Below are positions 1 through 3,903 of a stretch of DNA of 4,037 bases, one piece after another; position 1 is the stretch's first letter; each line of letters opens with the position of its first letter. The stretch is from IMG/VR virus record IMGVR_UViG_2671180567_000004, positions 1-4,037 of that record; one strand, given 5' to 3'. The translations under genes and the position numbers were made by a program. A model generated the notes under the pieces. That model ran no database searches, was not told where the DNA came from, and was given only the letters and a program-made list of their open reading frames with translations. The stretch comes from a virus. Taxonomy: Duplodnaviria; Heunggongvirae; Uroviricota; Caudoviricetes.

Positions 1-511
1 GTGAGGAGAAATAGGTGTTCTGCTTACCGTTATCCGTTGTCTGTGTACGGGGAGTTCTGGCTTTCGGTGCCAGCATCTGCGCCACACCACCCAGGATCAT
101 ACTGGCCCCTGCTGCATACATACCCGATACAGCCGCGGCCCCCAGCCAGCCCACAGGGTTCCACCATGCCACCGCAATCAGCGCCGCACCCAGCACTGCC
201 TGAAACACACCACCACTTTTGGCACCCACCAGGCGCGGCACGATGTGGATCACGGCACCATTTGCCAGCGGCTCATTAAGACGGGCAGATAATTCATTTT
301 CACCTGTATCACGCCCGGCAATGCGTACCTGATACCAGCCGTCGCTCAGCTTCTGACGAAACGCCGGGATCTGCATGGCCAGCGCCCGGATGGCTTCGGC
401 CCCCGTTTTTACACGAAGGTCGATGCGGCGGCCAAATCGTTGTAAATCCCCGTAAAGGCAGATGCGTGCCATGCCCGGTGACGCCAGAGGGAGTGTGTGC
501 GTCGCTGCCAT
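1..511 (-). CDS. I: tail assembly protein I (lambda gpI homolog), N-terminal ~170 codons; gene continues beyond the 5' edge of the window
   Basis: Not in the ORF track because no stop lies in the window. Hand translation of the reverse complement from ATG at 511..509 gives MAATHTLPLASPGMARICLYGDLQRFGRRIDLRVKTGAEAIRALAMQIPAFRQKLSDGWYQVRIAGRD...VIHIVPRLVGAKSGGVFQAVLGAALIAVAWWNP...ASMILGGVAQMLAPKARTPRTQTTDNGKQNTYFSS with no stop down to position 1. This matches my memory of lambda gpI, and the position after K fits lambda order. The start overlaps the 3' end of K by about 100 nt in another frame. Confidence 0.85.
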   Translation of the reverse strand, partial: MAATHTLPLASPGMARICLYGDLQRFGRRIDLRVKTGAEAIRALAMQIPAFRQKLSDGWYQVRIAGRDTGENELSARLNEPLANGAVIHIVPRLVGAKSGGVFQAVLGAALIAVAWWNPVGWLGAAAVSGMYAAGASMILGGVAQMLAPKARTPRTQTTDNGKQNTYFSS

Positions 512-1146
512 TTGTCGGTATACCTCTCTCGTTTGCTCAGTTGTTCAGGAATATGGTGCAGCAGCTCGCCGTCACCACAGTAAATGGCGGCATGATTCGG
601 CACCGATGAACCAAAACAGCACAGCAGCACATCGCCCGGTTGTGCTGATGACAACGGCACCTGATACAGCCCTGTGGCCTCCAGATTATCCAGATAGAGA
701 TTCTGACCGTGACGCCACCAGTCATCCCCGCGATGAAAATCCGGCATCTCAATCCCCGCCAGATGATAAGCATCCCGGAACAGCGTGTAACAGTCCGTCA
801 CCCCGTGCTCAAAGCGCCGCCCGGTGAGATGCGGCACACAGCGGAACTTATGAATCGCCCCCCGGCAGACCAGCCACCACGGCAAATCACTCTGCACCTG
901 CAGCCGCCGGTCGGCCTCACTCAGCCAGGGCAGACCACCGGGGTGGCTGTGGACCAGCGCCACAATCTCACCCTGCATTTCTGCCTGCAACCAGTCTTCC
1001 GGCAACATACGGAAATACGCCTCCGGCTCACCGGAGATATTCACGCAGGGGAAATATCTTTCCCCCTCCGGCGTGCTTACCACGAAGCCGCACGACTCCG
1101 CTGGCGCACATCGCCGGGCGTGCGCCAATATATTGCTATAGAGCAT
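409..1146 (-). CDS. K: tail tip assembly protein K (lambda gpK homolog); N-terminal MPN/JAMM-type domain plus C-terminal NlpC/P60-type domain
   Basis: ORF-track entry 409..1185 (258 aa) contains HSHPGGLPWLSEAD (JAMM-like H-x-H...S-x-x-D, His codon at 949..951) with an upstream glutamate, then a C-terminal Cys/His region (GVTDCYTLF, VPNHAAIY) typical of NlpC/P60 hydrolases. The protein matches my memory of lambda K. I place the start at the second in-frame ATG (1146..1144) because it is preceded by AGGAG (complement of 1152..1156) at 5-nt spacing, while the first ATG at 1185 has no Shine-Dalgarno and would put a terminator-like hairpin inside the coding sequence. Predicted 245 aa. Confidence 0.9.
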   Translation of the reverse strand: MLYSNILAHARRCAPAESCGFVVSTPEGERYFPCVNISGEPEAYFRMLPEDWLQAEMQGEIVALVHSHPGGLPWLSEADRRLQVQSDLPWWLVCRGAIHKFRCVPHLTGRRFEHGVTDCYTLFRDAYHLAGIEMPDFHRGDDWWRHGQNLYLDNLEATGLYQVPLSSAQPGDVLLCCFGSSVPNHAAIYCGDGELLHHIPEQLSKRERYTDKWQRRTHSLWRHRAWHASAFTGIYNDLAAASTFV

Positions 1147-1159
1147 GAGAACTCCTGAT

Positions 1160-1182
1160 AAAAAACCCAGCCGAAGCTGGGT
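1160..1182 (-). terminator. candidate intrinsic terminator on the minus strand between ant stop and K ribosome-binding site
   Basis: Minus-strand RNA would read ACCCAGC-UUCG-GCUGGGU (7-bp GC-rich stem, UUCG tetraloop) followed directly by UUUUUU, then the K Shine-Dalgarno AGGAG. Plus-strand coordinates: A-tract 1160..1165, stem arms 1165..1171 and 1176..1182. Confidence 0.55.
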
Positions 1183-1200
1183 CATTTCGTTGGCAATCTG

Positions 1201-2121
1201 TTAGTAGTGATGCAGTGAAGGAGGTAATTCTTTGTTCTTAAGTCTTACCCATGCAGAAAGATTCGTTGGTCCGTCTGGCTCATTAATATCAATATCTCGC
1301 GTGTGATTGATTAAAACGTCTCTCGCCATTCCGATAACATACGAGAACTCATGGCCGTAGTCGTAGCACCTGCCAGAATAGTTTGATTGAATTTGCTTTA
1401 GCGCCAGATACAGTTCGCGGAATAATGCCTGTGAGCGGTTGGCATAATCCCATAGCCATACAAGGCTGTTTGCTTCTTTTGCGGAAAGCTCGTTGGTGCT
1501 CTTCTCTTGTTTGCCGATTAACTCTCCTTCAAGCGGAACGCGAGCAGCAAGTGACAGAGCTTCGGTAAACTGCTCCTCGCTGATTTCTTTGTATGAACAC
1601 CCAAAATGAGATTTCAGTGACGACCACATGGTGATCATCGCCTTCGCCTGTTTTTCTTTTGGCAGAGACTGACCGCGACTCATGACGAGTTGTTTAATGG
1701 CTTCCTGCTGTTCAGTGGTGATTTTCCCCAGCAATGCCTTTTTAGCTTTGCGCGGGTTAATCACATGGCCTTTAGTCCAGTACTCGTAGAGCACATCGTC
1801 ACACTCTTCCTGATACTGGATTACCTTGTCGCGAATTTCAGGGCGGACTTTGTTAGGACTGATGGTTTGGAGCCAACCATTCAGTTTACGCAAAGCAAGG
1901 CAAATCATGGTCTGCATACCGCCAACTGAAGGTATTGCGATTTCCACAATACCTTTAGCAAATCTTTGTTTTAACTTTGTAAACTGTGAAGCCCAATCCA
2001 TACCCATTCCCTCAACGATAGGTTTCATTGGGGTGTACGGTTCGCCGTTGTGATTGACGACATAAAGCTCTGCGCCGTGGAATGGCACGTTGATAGTAGA
2101 TACCGCTGTTGCTATACTCAT
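1201..2121 (-). CDS. ant: phage antirepressor (Ant-like) protein, about 306 aa
   Basis: ORF-track entry 1201..2175 (324 aa from a GTG). I prefer the in-frame ATG at 2121..2119 because it is preceded by AAGGAA (complement of 2131..2136, 8-nt spacer) and the GTG at 2175 has no Shine-Dalgarno. The N-terminus MSIATAVSTINVPFHGAELYVVNHNGEPYTPMKPIVEGMGMDWASQFTKLK resembles phage antirepressor N-terminal domains (P22 Ant / Bro-N-like) from memory. Assignment is strengthened by the adjacent upstream Arc-like and divergent Mnt-like genes. Stop TAA at 1203..1201. Confidence 0.7.
   Translation of the reverse strand: MSIATAVSTINVPFHGAELYVVNHNGEPYTPMKPIVEGMGMDWASQFTKLKQRFAKGIVEIAIPSVGGMQTMICLALRKLNGWLQTISPNKVRPEIRDKVIQYQEECDDVLYEYWTKGHVINPRKAKKALLGKITTEQQEAIKQLVMSRGQSLPKEKQAKAMITMWSSLKSHFGCSYKEISEEQFTEALSLAARVPLEGELIGKQEKSTNELSAKEANSLVWLWDYANRSQALFRELYLALKQIQSNYSGRCYDYGHEFSYVIGMARDVLINHTRDIDINEPDGPTNLSAWVRLKNKELPPSLHHY
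2090..2118 (+). promoter_or_regulatory. candidate sigma70 promoter for an antisense (sar-like) RNA, inside the 5' end of ant
   Basis: Plus strand: -35 TTGATA (2090..2095), 17-bp spacer, extended -10 TGc TATACT (TG at 2110..2111, hexamer 2113..2118). Predicted start near 2125, reading antisense across the ant Shine-Dalgarno. Confidence 0.4.
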
Positions 2122-2124
2122 TTC

Positions 2125-2195
2125 GTTAGTTCCTTGGAAGTTACTGACATAGAAGCCCGATTTGTGTTCGCGCACTGTCGGGCTTCGCTATTTTT
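2125..2195 (+). ncRNA. candidate cis-antisense small RNA (sar-like, about 70 nt) complementary to the ant ribosome-binding site and arc-ant spacer
   Basis: Bounded by the candidate promoter at 2090..2118 and the plus-strand hairpin plus U-tract at 2152..2195. The transcript would contain UCCUUG, the complement of the ant Shine-Dalgarno. P22 immI is known to encode a short antisense RNA (sar) in the arc-ant spacer; this is an analogy, not a sequence match. Confidence 0.35.
2152..2195 (+). terminator. candidate unidirectional intrinsic terminator (plus strand) in the arc-ant spacer
   Basis: Inverted repeat GAAGCCCGA (2152..2160) / TCGGGCTTC (2178..2186) gives a 9-bp stem with a 17-nt loop that has an inner GTG/CAC pairing. 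On the plus strand it is followed by GCTATTTTTAT (T-run 2191..2195). On the minus strand no U-tract follows, so arc-to-ant read-through should not be stopped. Confidence 0.4.
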
Positions 2196-2361
2196 ATGTC
2201 CTAGCATTCTTCTCTCCAATCAGTCCGTACACTTTTCTCAATTGATAAATAAGTTCCGTGTTGAACTGTCGACACTCTTTTTCTCCATTTCTTTCAATCG
2301 CCTTCCTTACATCCTCTGGGAAACGAACCTTGCGTTGATACATGTCTTTTGCTTTTTCCAT
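2194..2361 (-). CDS. arc: Arc-like ribbon-helix-helix repressor, 55 aa (not in the ORF track)
   Basis: Hand translation of the minus strand from ATG 2361..2359 gives MEKAKDMYQRKVRFPEDVRKAIERNGEKECRQFNTELIYQLRKVYGLIGEKNART, stop TAA at 2196..2194. Strong Shine-Dalgarno AAGGAG with 5-nt spacer (complement of 2367..2372). The strand (KVRFPEDV), helix and N-cap (NTELIYQL) pattern closely resembles P22 Arc as I remember it (...NLRWPREV...NSEIYQRV...). It sits immediately upstream of ant on the same strand. Confidence 0.8.
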   Translation of the reverse strand: MEKAKDMYQRKVRFPEDVRKAIERNGEKECRQFNTELIYQLRKVYGLIGEKNART

Positions 2362-2399
2362 CTCCACTCCTTAAATAGCCTCACTATGGGGCAACCAAA

Positions 2400-2428
2400 A
2401 TTGTCACACCGTGCGTCATTGAAGTCAA
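2400..2428 (-). promoter_or_regulatory. candidate Pant-like sigma70 promoter driving arc-ant (minus strand)
   Basis: Minus strand reads TTGACT (complement of 2423..2428), 17-bp spacer, TGtGACAAT (extended -10; hexamer is complement of 2400..2405). Predicted start about 30 nt upstream of the arc ATG. The spacer contains CACCGTG (2407..2413). Confidence 0.45.
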
Positions 2429-2447
2429 CCCCACCGTGGGGCATAAT
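2419..2447 (+). promoter_or_regulatory. candidate Pmnt-like sigma70 promoter driving the Mnt-like gene (plus strand)
   Basis: Plus strand: -35 TTGAAG (2419..2424), 17-bp spacer, -10 CATAAT (2442..2447), about 37 bp before the ATG at 2485. Its -35 overlaps the -35 of the divergent minus-strand promoter back-to-back. The spacer contains the palindrome CCCCAC-C-GTGGGG (2429..2441). Confidence 0.5.
2429..2441. promoter_or_regulatory. candidate operator: 13-bp palindrome CCCCAC-C-GTGGGG
   Basis: Dyad symmetry (6-bp arms around a central C) between the two -35 elements and abutting the plus-strand -10. Its core CACCGTG recurs as a direct repeat at 2407..2413 inside the opposite promoter spacer. 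The size and symmetry suit a ribbon-helix-helix dimer or tetramer site. Confidence 0.45.
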
Positions 2448-2484
2448 TTACTTATTGTGAATTTTTCCTGTTTGGACTAATGGT

Positions 2485-2859
2485 ATGAGTAGAGAAGACC
2501 CTCAACTTCGGATTAGGCTTCCTGTTGAATTAAAAAAAATAATTGAAGCGTCATCAAAACAAAATAATCGTTCTATGAATGCTGAGATTGTCACTCTGCT
2601 TGAGTTGGCGATTCGTGTTTGTCGTGATTTTGGGCCGGAGGATGGTCCTATCGTTCAGCAGTTTAAAGAACAACTAGATGCGATAAACAGAAAATATGAT
2701 AAAAGCGAGCATGAAAAACTTATACCTCAACTTTTAGAAATCATAGAAAAACAGAAAAAACAAGTAGATAAACTTATTAGCATGGTTGAAAGATCAATTC
2801 CTCTTTCAGAGGAATATAAGCAGAAATATCTTGGTGATGACAACAAAAAACCCACCTGA
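2485..2859 (+). CDS. mnt: Mnt-like ribbon-helix-helix repressor with extended C-terminal helical region, 124 aa
   Basis: ORF-track entry 2485..2859. N-terminus MSREDPQLRIRLPVELKKIIEASSKQNNRSMNAEIVTLLELAI has the Arc/MetJ-type strand-helix-helix signature and resembles the P22 Mnt N-terminus as I remember it (RDDPHFNFRMP...NGRSMNSEL...). The C-terminal part (LIPQLLEIIEKQKKQVDKLISMVERS) is heptad-like and K/E-rich, consistent with an oligomerisation helix. It is divergent from arc-ant and convergent with L. Confidence 0.8.
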   Translation: MSREDPQLRIRLPVELKKIIEASSKQNNRSMNAEIVTLLELAIRVCRDFGPEDGPIVQQFKEQLDAINRKYDKSEHEKLIPQLLEIIEKQKKQVDKLISMVERSIPLSEEYKQKYLGDDNKKPT

Positions 2860-2866
2860 TGGTGGG
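2845..2866 (-). terminator. candidate intrinsic terminator on the minus strand just after the L stop codon
   Basis: Minus-strand RNA after the L stop (TAA, complement of 2876..2878) reads CCCACC-AUCA-GGUGGG followed directly by UUUUUU. Plus-strand coordinates: A-tract 2845..2850, stem arms 2851..2856 and 2861..2866. The hairpin overlaps the Mnt-like stop codon (TGA 2857..2859, in the loop). Confidence 0.5.
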
Positions 2867-2875
2867 CATAATCCA

Positions 2876-3574
2876 TTACTGCGAAAGTTTGTTAATGGAA
2901 AGGAAGCCGCCAAAGTTGCCGACGTTATTGCGAAACTTACAGCCACTCAGGCATTTGCTGCATTTATCCTTCGTGATATCGGACGTCGGCTGATCATATT
3001 CATCCGCGACTGCCGGACCGTGATAACCGCACTCATCACCGCGATAGGTCCAGGTGCAGGTGTTGGCCAGCATGATACGTCCCGGAAAAACAGCGCCGTC
3101 CGTTTCCGTCGGCGTGGACAGTACAAAAGAGGCACTCACCGCGCTCAGTTCGCTGCACTGCTCAATGCGCCAGCGGCTGATCACCTCCTGCTCCGGATCG
3201 GCGTCACTGTTTCCGTTGACGAAGTTCACCGCATCCAGAAAACGGGCGTAAACCTTACGCCGGACCACCGTTCCGCCGACCAGACTCTGCAGATCTTCCG
3301 CCATCCCGGTGACCATACCGTACAGGTTAGAAACCGTCAGCGTGGGGCGCGTACTGGTGCCTTTGCCATTCAGTTCAAAACCACTCCCCTGAATGGGATA
3401 CGGCTGATACTGTCGCCCCTGCCAGGTGACCGGCTCACCTTTTTCGTTCTGCTCATTACAGAAAAAATAACGTTCTCCACCGACCTCTGTCAGGTCGATT
3501 TCCCAGAGCACCACGCTGGCCGACTGCTCCGCACGGGTGCATTCATTCAGTGTTTCCTGCCGGATATCCTGCAT
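2876..3574 (-). CDS. L: minor tail protein L (lambda gpL homolog), 232 aa
   Basis: ORF-track protein MQDIRQETLNECTRAEQSASVVLWEIDLTEVGGERYFFCNEQNEKGEPVTWQGRQYQPYPIQ...CSKCLSGCKFRNNVGNFGGFLSINKLSQ matches lambda gpL almost along its whole length from memory. The start ATG overlaps the M stop (TGATG, 3576..3572). Four C-terminal cysteines are present. Confidence 0.95.
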   Translation of the reverse strand: MQDIRQETLNECTRAEQSASVVLWEIDLTEVGGERYFFCNEQNEKGEPVTWQGRQYQPYPIQGSGFELNGKGTSTRPTLTVSNLYGMVTGMAEDLQSLVGGTVVRRKVYARFLDAVNFVNGNSDADPEQEVISRWRIEQCSELSAVSASFVLSTPTETDGAVFPGRIMLANTCTWTYRGDECGYHGPAVADEYDQPTSDITKDKCSKCLSGCKFRNNVGNFGGFLSINKLSQ

Positions 3575-3903
3575 CAGTTCACCACCTGTTCAAACTCTGC
3601 GCTGAACTCAACACGCAGCATACTGACCCGCGACGACCATTTTGCGCAGGTCACCTTTATCTGCCGCCACTCATAAGGCGGCGTCCACAGAAAGGCTTTC
3701 CAGCCCCCGTGCTCTTCCAGAAACGACTCCAGTACCGTGGCCTCCTCACGGGGGACAGAAAGCGTCACGCTGTACGTTTTCAGGTTGGCATTCAGCCCGG
3801 CAGGCGCTCGCTGGGAATAGCCATCACCAAAGCGCACCTTTCTTACAGAAGGGGCCGAAGCCACATCCATACCGGGTTTCACTTTCCAGCGGAAGGTTTT
3901 CAT
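3574..3903 (-). CDS. M: minor tail protein M (lambda gpM homolog), 109 aa
   Basis: ORF-track protein MKTFRWKVKPGMDVASAPSVRKVRFGDGYSQRAPAGLNANLKTYSVTLSVPREEATVLESFLEEHGGWKAFLWTPPYEWRQIKVTCAKWSSRVSMLRVEFSAEFEQVVN is near-identical to lambda gpM from memory. The start overlaps the H stop (ATGA). Confidence 0.95.
   Translation of the reverse strand: MKTFRWKVKPGMDVASAPSVRKVRFGDGYSQRAPAGLNANLKTYSVTLSVPREEATVLESFLEEHGGWKAFLWTPPYEWRQIKVTCAKWSSRVSMLRVEFSAEFEQVVN

Follow-up and report, generated by a model that had tools for sequence, protein, structure and literature searches.

The segment between the tail genes L and K in the 4,037-nt stretch of phage DNA analysed here (the window) is very probably a complete and apparently functional homologue of the immI region of phage P22, placed at the L/K junction of a lambda-type tail operon. 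This identification is made from the sequence, because of gene homologies, operator-like and promoter-like sites, a sar-type element, and terminators at both ends of the segment; the promoters and operators are pattern matches, and the mechanistic steps proposed below are drawn by homology with P22. In P22, immI lies inside the late operon and has been named the “ant moron” (PMC2629481). Three intact full-length open reading frames (ORFs) are found between L and K of the window. A preliminary description of this DNA had proposed that they are homologues of mnt, arc, and ant, and the Pfam, PHROG, and PDB searches, together with pairwise and hhalign comparisons, bear this out: the window and P22 immI share the same genes in the same order and orientation, with ant on the late-gene strand and inside the late operon.

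The tail genes that surround the cassette are all encoded on the minus strand, which is the late strand: M outside it (3574..3903; Pfam Phage_min_tail, E = 1.1e-39), L directly upstream (2876..3574; Phage_tail_L, E = 4.6e-101, and junction alignment), and K directly downstream (409..1146; 245 aa, Prok-JAB + NLPC_P60), whose relatives carry the PGAP name C40 family peptidase. We aligned the L/K junction against those of lambda, mEp332, and Turner. In these three phages the junction is empty: the stop codon of L is followed by 5 nt (ATCCC) and then by the ATG of K. Homology between the window and these phages ends directly after the stop codon of L (TAA, 2878-2876), which is the left boundary of the insert, and returns at about position 1127, inside codon 7 of K; in E. 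coli genomes that match K alone, the matches likewise end at 1127. The insert is therefore placed at 1128-2875 (1.75 kb), from the L stop codon to K codon 7. These results agree with the earlier view that, compared with lambda-type phages, the segment has been inserted. Of the limits then given, 1147 and 2875, the second stands; the first overlooked six K codons that are supplied by the cassette. A cassette-borne ribosome-binding site (AGGAG) and these six codons (MLYSNI) occupy 1128..1157 on the minus strand, as judged from the junction alignment and the comparison of cassettes, and the new K start takes the place of the MTQTESAI of the empty-junction phages. Lambda was said to have nothing between L and K, which is right (5 nt) if the conserved K ORF is taken, whereas the later K start annotated in the RefSeq lambda record produces an apparent gap of 148 nt. 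The cassette was also correctly described as AT-rich, with a GC content of 0.428 in 1128-2875 versus 0.596 and 0.566 in the flanks. The segment has the properties of a moron: it is missing from lambda, mEp332, and Turner, it carries its own promoter-like sites and terminators, and its GC content is deviant.

As had been proposed, a 306-aa Ant-like ORF runs on the late strand (1201..2121, minus). Its product matches Pfam P22_AR_N (E = 6e-45) and P22_AR_C (E = 5e-28), passing the cut-off in each case, and PHROG 245, anti-repressor Ant (E = 9e-97); a PDB sequence search with Ant gave no match. The protein is 56% identical to P22 Ant over its full length (pairwise E = 1e-117), and by segment the identity is 46%, 25%, and 85%, where the 25% segment comprises residues 121-189 and the 85% segment the C-terminal 117 residues. 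The C-terminal part, which the preliminary description could not place, is thus the Pfam P22AR C-terminal domain. The repressors of phages P22, L, lambda, and 21 are targets of P22 Ant, which inactivates them (PMC3121763, citing Susskind and Botstein 1975). The closest relatives of the window's Ant (96-98% amino acid identity) are found in P22-like phages, between genes 16 and 9, and we count this in favour of exchange between phage types. The late operons that carry near-identical ant genes are of P22-like, lambda-like, and myovirus-like type.

The mnt-like gene (2485..2859, plus strand) is divergent from the late strand and encodes a protein with an N-terminal ribbon-helix-helix (RHH) and a long helical C-terminal part; its length is 124 aa, compared with 83 aa for P22 Mnt. 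It matches Pfam Arc (E = 3e-7, above the curated cut-off), is 33% identical to residues 1-43 of P22 Mnt (pairwise E = 2e-10), and has 1MNT as its top PDB match (E = 1.5e-3). Its C-terminal 80 residues align weakly with the Mnt C-terminus, and their database matches are helical designed proteins only. The arc-like gene (2194..2361, minus strand) encodes a divergent RHH protein of 55 aa, starting from an ATG at 2361 with an AAGGAG ribosome-binding site upstream; the mechanical ORF, read from a GTG at 2367, has 57 aa. The score of this protein against Pfam Arc is just under the cut-off (E = 1.2e-3; 19.1 bits versus 20.4). It matches PHROG 228, Arc-like repressor (E = 5.5e-6), is 33% identical to P22 Arc (pairwise E = 3e-5), and aligns with an Arc/Mnt profile in hhalign at 89.5% probability (E = 2e-6, 43 columns). 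Similarity to antirepressor families (P22_AR_N/P22_AR_C) and to RHH repressors (the Arc-type matches) is accordingly present, with both regulators only about 33% identical to their P22 counterparts. A PDB sequence search with the arc-like protein returned designed proteins only, and an NCBIfam search with Ant and the Mnt-like and arc-like proteins gave no usable match. The AlphaFold2 single-sequence model of the 55-aa protein shows no RHH fold and one long helix (pLDDT 78), a model that is uninformative for a protein that folds only as a dimer. In all five loci with this regulator pair, the regulator proteins are 99-100% identical at the amino acid level.

A consensus scan of positions 1050-3000 gave four promoter-like matches, three of which are the Pant-, Pmnt-, and Psar-like sites. 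The Pmnt-like promoter (2419..2447, plus strand; TTGAAG-17-CATAAT) scores 9/12 and is a pattern match only. The Pant-like promoter (2400..2428, minus strand; TTGACT-17-GACAAT, with TG before the -10), found by the scan and by comparison with P22, lies 39 nt upstream of the arc-like ATG, versus 40 nt in P22. Three operator-like sites, to which no strand is assigned, lie around these promoters, with centres at 2435, 2410, and 2385, that is, at a spacing of 25 bp. Site A (GCCCCACGGTGGGGT, 2428..2442; motif/palindrome search) is located inside the Pmnt-like spacer and adjoins the Pant-like -35; its core, CCACGGTGG, is the same as that of the P22 Mnt operator, AGGTCCACGGTGGACCT. The weaker site B (GACGCACGGTGTGAC, 2403..2417), recognized as a direct repeat, falls within the Pant-like spacer, the position of Oarc in P22. 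Site C (GCCCCATAGTGAGGC, 2378..2392), found by motif search and from the annotation and sequence of P22, has its centre 15 nt downstream of the Pant-like -10, so that one copy of the palindrome keeps the offset of P22 Omnt. When up to 3 mismatches are allowed, the operator motif occurs at only two places in the whole window, against 0.10 expected. P22 has distinct Oarc and Omnt operators, whereas the window has three evenly spaced, related sites; the two core promoters of P22 overlap almost fully, whereas only the two -35 hexamers overlap in the window. From the arrangement of these predicted sites, the -35-only promoter overlap and the position of site A in the Pmnt-like spacer, the regulatory logic may differ from that of P22.

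The cassette was also searched for a LexA box, with no match. These negative searches led us to reject SOS control of the antirepressor as in Gifsy, Tum, or N15. Gifsy GfoA/GftA, Tum of coliphage 186, and AntC of N15 resemble the present system in that they bind and inactivate a prophage repressor and can act in trans, but these small proteins are unrelated and are controlled through a LexA box, whereas RHH repressors and an antisense RNA are the predicted control here.

The predicted sar-like antisense RNA (2125..2196, plus strand; about 70 nt) was recognized from its fold, its covariation, and the position of P22 sar. Its sequence is the complement of the arc-ant spacer and of the ant ribosome-binding site, and it ends in a hairpin (2152-2186) followed by a T run. 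The region folds at -28.3 kcal/mol (z = -4.9), and the hairpin is kept in 18 cassettes, with compensatory changes in 6 of its 14 pairs. The predicted RNA aligns with the annotated P22 sar and sits at the same position, with its terminator at the same place; Rfam, searched with the full window at E up to 1, gave no match, for this element or elsewhere. The Psar-like promoter (2090..2118, plus strand; TTGATA-17-TATACT with TG; 10/12 in the scan) lies inside ant codons 2-11, and its conserved -10, TATACT, is the same as that of P22 Psar. On the late strand, an intrinsic-terminator-like hairpin (GCCCACCATCAGGTGGGT, followed by TTTTTT; 2844..2867, minus strand) was found by the terminator scan just after L, and the mnt-like gene extends into it with its last codons; the hairpin is common to all L/K cassettes examined and has the same sequence in loci L001-L004. 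The second, the ant terminator (GACCCAGCTTCGGCTGGGTT, followed by TTTTAT; 1158..1183, minus strand), was found by the same scan and by comparison with P22, and its hairpin does not differ from that of the ant terminator annotated in P22. The preliminary description makes no mention of the replaced K start, the flanking terminators, the operators, or the sar-like element.

Both terminator-like hairpins, directly after L and directly after ant, are kept in every L/K cassette examined. This conservation would also suit a cassette that acts mainly as a transcriptional attenuator, in which terminators and convergent or antisense promoters set the levels of K, I, and J relative to the upstream tail proteins and the ant circuit is incidental. 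The ant moron of P22 has been proposed to act in this way on tailspike levels (PMC2629481), and the ribosome-binding site and start codon of K come from the cassette. However, we regard this as improbable: lambda, mEp332, and Turner, with an empty junction, assemble tails without the cassette, and an attenuator needs no intact, conserved ant, RHH genes, operators, or sar.

On the preferred interpretation as an immI homologue, the P22 precedent suggests the following course of events. In a lysogen, the Mnt-like repressor, expressed from its own promoter, would sit on the palindromic operators around the ant promoter and keep ant silent. On entry into a cell without a matching Mnt, the ant promoter would fire and give a brief burst of the Arc-like protein and Ant, after which Arc would close the ant promoter and the antisense RNA would stop ant translation. 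Ant would inactivate CI/C2-type repressors by non-covalent binding, and it follows that a phage bearing the cassette could break the immC immunity of a resident prophage if that prophage does not share its immI specificity, while a resident copy of Mnt would shield its own lysogen from this. Late transcripts modified by Q would pass both terminators and so reach K, I, and J. The immI region is reported to modulate lysogeny frequency (PMC11016777).

Alternatively, the main source of Ant could be Q-antiterminated late transcripts in lytic growth, and Ant could serve as a cross-inducer of co-resident lambdoid prophages, a possibility that deserves consideration but that we do not favour. The ant gene lies on the late strand and is necessarily transcribed whenever K, I, and J are, and Q-modified polymerase, whose passage through terminators is established lambda biology, would not stop at either flanking terminator. 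Trans-acting antirepressors link the Gifsy and Fels prophages. Co-resident lambdoid prophages are common in E. coli, since up to 9 places per genome, mostly copies of the K gene, match the junction probe; in a speculation by Lemire et al., P22 Ant couples the induction of different prophages (PMC3121763). On the contrary, the predicted sar-type antisense RNA, which is conserved, covers the ant ribosome-binding site, and published work on P22 counts against late read-through as the main route. Moreover, Ant made once the late genes of its own phage are on would be of no help to the induction of that phage, and no LexA box is present that would give an SOS link as in Gifsy.

The L/K location had been considered unusual, a view that does not survive comparison with other genomes. 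Of 5426 complete E. coli genomes, 461 have this ant/K junction; Stx phages 2851, 1717, YYZ-2008, and others have Ant and an Arc-like repressor annotated between their tail genes; and P22 immI itself lies in a late operon. An immI-type cassette at L/K is thus already known, being common and annotated in many E. coli prophages; our literature search yielded database annotation and tallies of Ant in Stx phages, and no paper explicitly discussing this location. P22 differs in that its immI occupies the gene 16/gene 9 junction of a podovirus, whereas the window is a lambda-type siphovirus tail operon and has no sieA or hkc gene. The cassettes at L/K of the Stx/lambdoid phages 2851, 1717, and YYZ-2008, and of E. 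coli A1 (locus L002), have ends identical to those of the window, namely the post-L terminator and the ant terminator with the new K start. Their ant genes show about 92-93% DNA identity over most of their length, and they are likewise annotated with Ant and Arc-family proteins. They differ in carrying another regulator allele, which encodes a 106-aa Mnt-like and a 57-aa Arc-like protein, and in their operator repeats (ATGGTGCCAT, ATGGTGGCAT, and TTGGCACCAA), which are unlike those of the window. Variable regulator genes between identical cassette ends are as expected for diversifying immunity specificities.

The full cassette with the regulator combination of the window is rare, occurring in 2 of the 5426 complete E. 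coli genomes. RefSeq annotates a 99.9% identical cassette in E. coli CFSAN018748, and this identity, together with the intact ORFs, is counted in favour of recent selection or transfer. The prophage that holds it appears to be defective, with frameshifts in head genes and an IS66 element in its small terminase gene, as would be compatible with an inert passenger, a decaying remnant that has lost its current function; some P22-like phages do have degraded ant morons (PMC2629481). Nevertheless, we consider such a remnant very improbable for the window: its three ORFs are intact and of full length, the promoter-like, operator-like, sar-like, and terminator elements are all present, and compensatory changes keep the sar hairpin paired across cassettes. 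The primary repressor of the CFSAN018748 prophage is a LexA-family cleavable CI, like P22 C2, which says little about the immunity region that belongs with the window and lies outside it, as the tail flanks of the two differ.

Taking these comparisons together, we speculate, and only tentatively, that the rare allele represents a distinct immI specificity class with altered logic, and that the ant cassette is a terminator-bounded mobile unit that shuttles among podovirus, siphovirus, and myovirus late operons and mediates immunity-breaking between co-resident E. coli prophages. The features behind the notion of a distinct class are the 124-aa Mnt-like protein, the 55-aa RHH protein (hypothetical according to PGAP in the near-identical cassette), and the three operator-like sites 25 bp apart; the altered logic could consist of direct autorepression of mnt via site A in the spacer of its own promoter.

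The cassette of the window in itself adds little to this picture: lambda-type tail operons carry the well-studied P22 circuit with little change, antisense RNA and terminator included, and it is the regulators that vary. In practice the cassette is useful for annotation, as the arc-like ORF and the sar-like RNA are unannotated in the RefSeq copy. More generally, through antirepressor cassettes one phage can override the immunity of another prophage, and the induction of several prophages can be linked, which bears on how Stx phages and other converting phages spread in E. coli.

The late tail genes of this stretch lie on the minus strand and are of the lambda type: M (3574-3903), L (2876-3574), K (409-1146), and the start of I, which runs off the left end of the window. 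Three intact open reading frames separate L from K, in a segment whose GC content, 0.428, is lower than that of either flank (0.596 and 0.566). The edges of this segment were set by aligning the late strand with phages lambda, mEp332, and Turner, in which ATCCC and then the K start (MTQTESAILAHAR) stand directly 3' of the L stop codon. In the window, similarity to these phages is lost right past the L stop and regained at TGGCGCACGCC, around position 1127; therefore, the insert comprises 1128-2875 (about 1.75 kb), essentially as the preliminary description had placed it, and it takes the place of 29 nt. Its terminal part, 1128-1157, gives K a new ribosome-binding site and its first six codons (MLYSNI...), and matches to K only, found in thousands of Escherichia coli genomes, end exactly at the insert edge (~1127). 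In lambda (locus L006, 1229-1377), RefSeq places the K start at 14276, whereas the conserved K reading frame starts 5 nt past the L stop, as annotated in Turner.

The largest gene of the cassette, ant (1201-2121, minus strand), encodes 306 amino acids with the domains P22_AR_N (E 6e-45) and P22_AR_C (E 5e-28), and matches PHROG 245, “anti-repressor Ant” (E 9e-97). Its product is 56% identical to Ant of Salmonella phage P22 over the full length, with 46% identity at residues 1-120, 25% at 121-189, and 85% at 190-306. Thus the C-terminal part, in which no motif had initially been placed, is the best-conserved part of the protein. The mnt-like frame (2485-2859, plus strand) encodes a 124-aa protein with an N-terminal ribbon-helix-helix (RHH) domain (Pfam Arc, E 3e-7); it is 33% identical to P22 Mnt over Mnt residues 1-43, and 1MNT is its best solved relative. 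The arc-like frame (2194-2361, minus strand), whose ATG is preceded by AAGGAG, encodes 55 amino acids that, judged from sequence, represent a divergent RHH protein. It scores slightly below the cut-off of Pfam Arc, but matches PHROG 228 (E 5.5e-6) and, in pairwise comparison, P22 Arc (E 3e-5), and hhalign aligns it with the Arc/Mnt profile at 89.5% probability across the whole RHH. The module first noted is real, and the original assignment of its genes to mnt, arc, and ant was correct.

The non-coding elements were compared with the annotated immI region of P22. Three of the four promoter-like sites in 1050-3000 lie where P22 has promoters: a Pant-like site (TTGACT-17-GACAAT, 2428-2400, minus strand) 39 nt upstream of the arc-like ATG, a Pmnt-like site (TTGAAG-17-CATAAT, 2419-2447, plus strand), and a Psar-like site (TTGATA-17-TATACT, 2090-2118, plus strand) within the first ant codons, with the same -10 as P22 Psar. 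An operator-like palindrome, GCCCCACGGTGGGGT, at 2428-2442 has the core CCACGGTGG in common with the P22 Mnt operator. A second copy, at 2378-2392, is centred 15 nt downstream of the -10 of the Pant-like site, which matches the distance of Omnt from the ant -10 in P22. With up to three mismatches allowed, the motif occurs at these two places only (0.10 expected), and a weaker third copy sits within the Pant-like spacer. The stretch 2378-2442 holds three related operator-like sites (centres 2435, 2410, and 2385) spaced exactly 25 bp apart, whereas the equivalent space in P22 holds two unrelated operators, Oarc and Omnt.

The antisense strand of the arc-ant spacer carries a hairpin (2152-2186) with a T run behind it. 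For the ~70-nt antisense RNA predicted here, the calculated folding energy is -28.3 kcal/mol (z -4.9). Its sar-like hairpin is kept in 18 different cassettes, among which 6 of the 14 pairs show compensatory changes; Rfam did not recognize the element. On the late strand, terminator-like hairpins lie directly 3' of L (2867-2850, or 2844-2867 with its T run) and 3' of ant (1183-1164), the latter identical to the hairpin of the annotated P22 ant terminator. The former overlaps the final codons of the divergent mnt-like gene, and the Mnt-like proteins encoded here and at an E. coli A1 locus (L002), although unrelated alleles, both terminate in KKPT, coded by this hairpin.

By homology, we infer that the cassette is a second immunity region. 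In a lysogen, Mnt would hold ant silent; on entry into a cell without a matching Mnt, the ant promoter would yield a brief burst of Arc and Ant, after which Arc and the antisense RNA would shut Ant down. Ant may inactivate CI/C2-type repressors by binding them; P22 Ant is active against the P22, L, lambda, and 21 repressors (PMC3121763), and deletion of immI alters lysogeny frequency (PMC11016777). Production of Ant by late read-through, as proposed in the preliminary description, is possible but unsupported, and the conserved predicted antisense element, which spans the ant ribosome-binding site, speaks against it as the main route. A search of the cassette for a LexA box found none. The E. 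coli CFSAN018748 prophage, whose cassette is nearly identical, has an ordinary CI of the LexA family as its primary repressor.

Public annotation already contains and names both the module and its L/K location, and systems of this type have been under study since the 1970s and 1980s. The present analysis adds the exact insert edges, the sar-like element, the operator-like sites, the flanking terminators, the replaced K start, and the distribution of the cassette among phages of different tail types. By megablast, Ant lies at L/K in many annotated phages, including the Stx phages 2851, 1717, and YYZ-2008 as well as the Stx2a_WGPS series and PhiR12, frequently with an annotated Arc-like repressor; in E. 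coli genomes, PGAP labels the genes there “phage antirepressor Ant” and “Arc family DNA-binding protein”. A 401-nt junction probe spanning the ant 3' end, the terminator, and the K start was covered (at least 80%) in 461 of 5426 complete E. coli genomes. The full cassette occurs in only two of the complete genomes, so this combination of regulators is rare; the copy in CFSAN018748 is 99.9% identical over 1690 nt. In that prophage (L089/L090, at dusA), the small terminase gene contains an IS66-family element and several head genes are frameshifted; its nin region carries two more antirepressor-type genes (KilAC, P22AR_C), and a HipA-family kinase gene adjoins cI.

Among the 80 closest Ant loci in IMG/VR, 57 lie between homologues of P22 genes 16 and 9 and 15 between L and K. 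The remaining eight are placed elsewhere; they include a nin-region locus and a locus within a myovirus-like baseplate cluster. Setting aside the L/K loci of this allele itself, the most similar Ant proteins (96-97% amino acid identity) belong to P22-like contexts. In two other contexts (L057:208-6150 and L068:3987-5985), the same ant cassette is present with an Ant that is 87-88% identical: one is a baseplate cluster of the myovirus-like kind (Baseplate_J, DUF2612, E217 gp41-like), and the other is a nin region where RusA, Q, and a KilAC antirepressor are neighbours. In every context, the cassettes have their right-hand boundary in common, namely the hairpin of the ant terminator.

All L/K cassettes have identical ends, whereas their interiors differ: depending on the cassette, the mnt position is occupied by one of several RHH alleles, by a LexA-family protein, or by ClpP together with two RHH genes, and the operator repeats vary along with the regulator allele. 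This pattern fits a single ancestral insertion whose interior was later shuffled, a history also put forward for the ant moron of P22 (PMC2629481). With the same cassette ends, E. coli MS 196-1 (L004:2959-4003) has two Arc-family genes and a ClpP protease subunit at the mnt position, and E. coli EC12 (L003:2999-3808) has a 269-aa LexA-family protein of the self-cleaving type. A LexA-like repressor at the Mnt position would render ant SOS-inducible.
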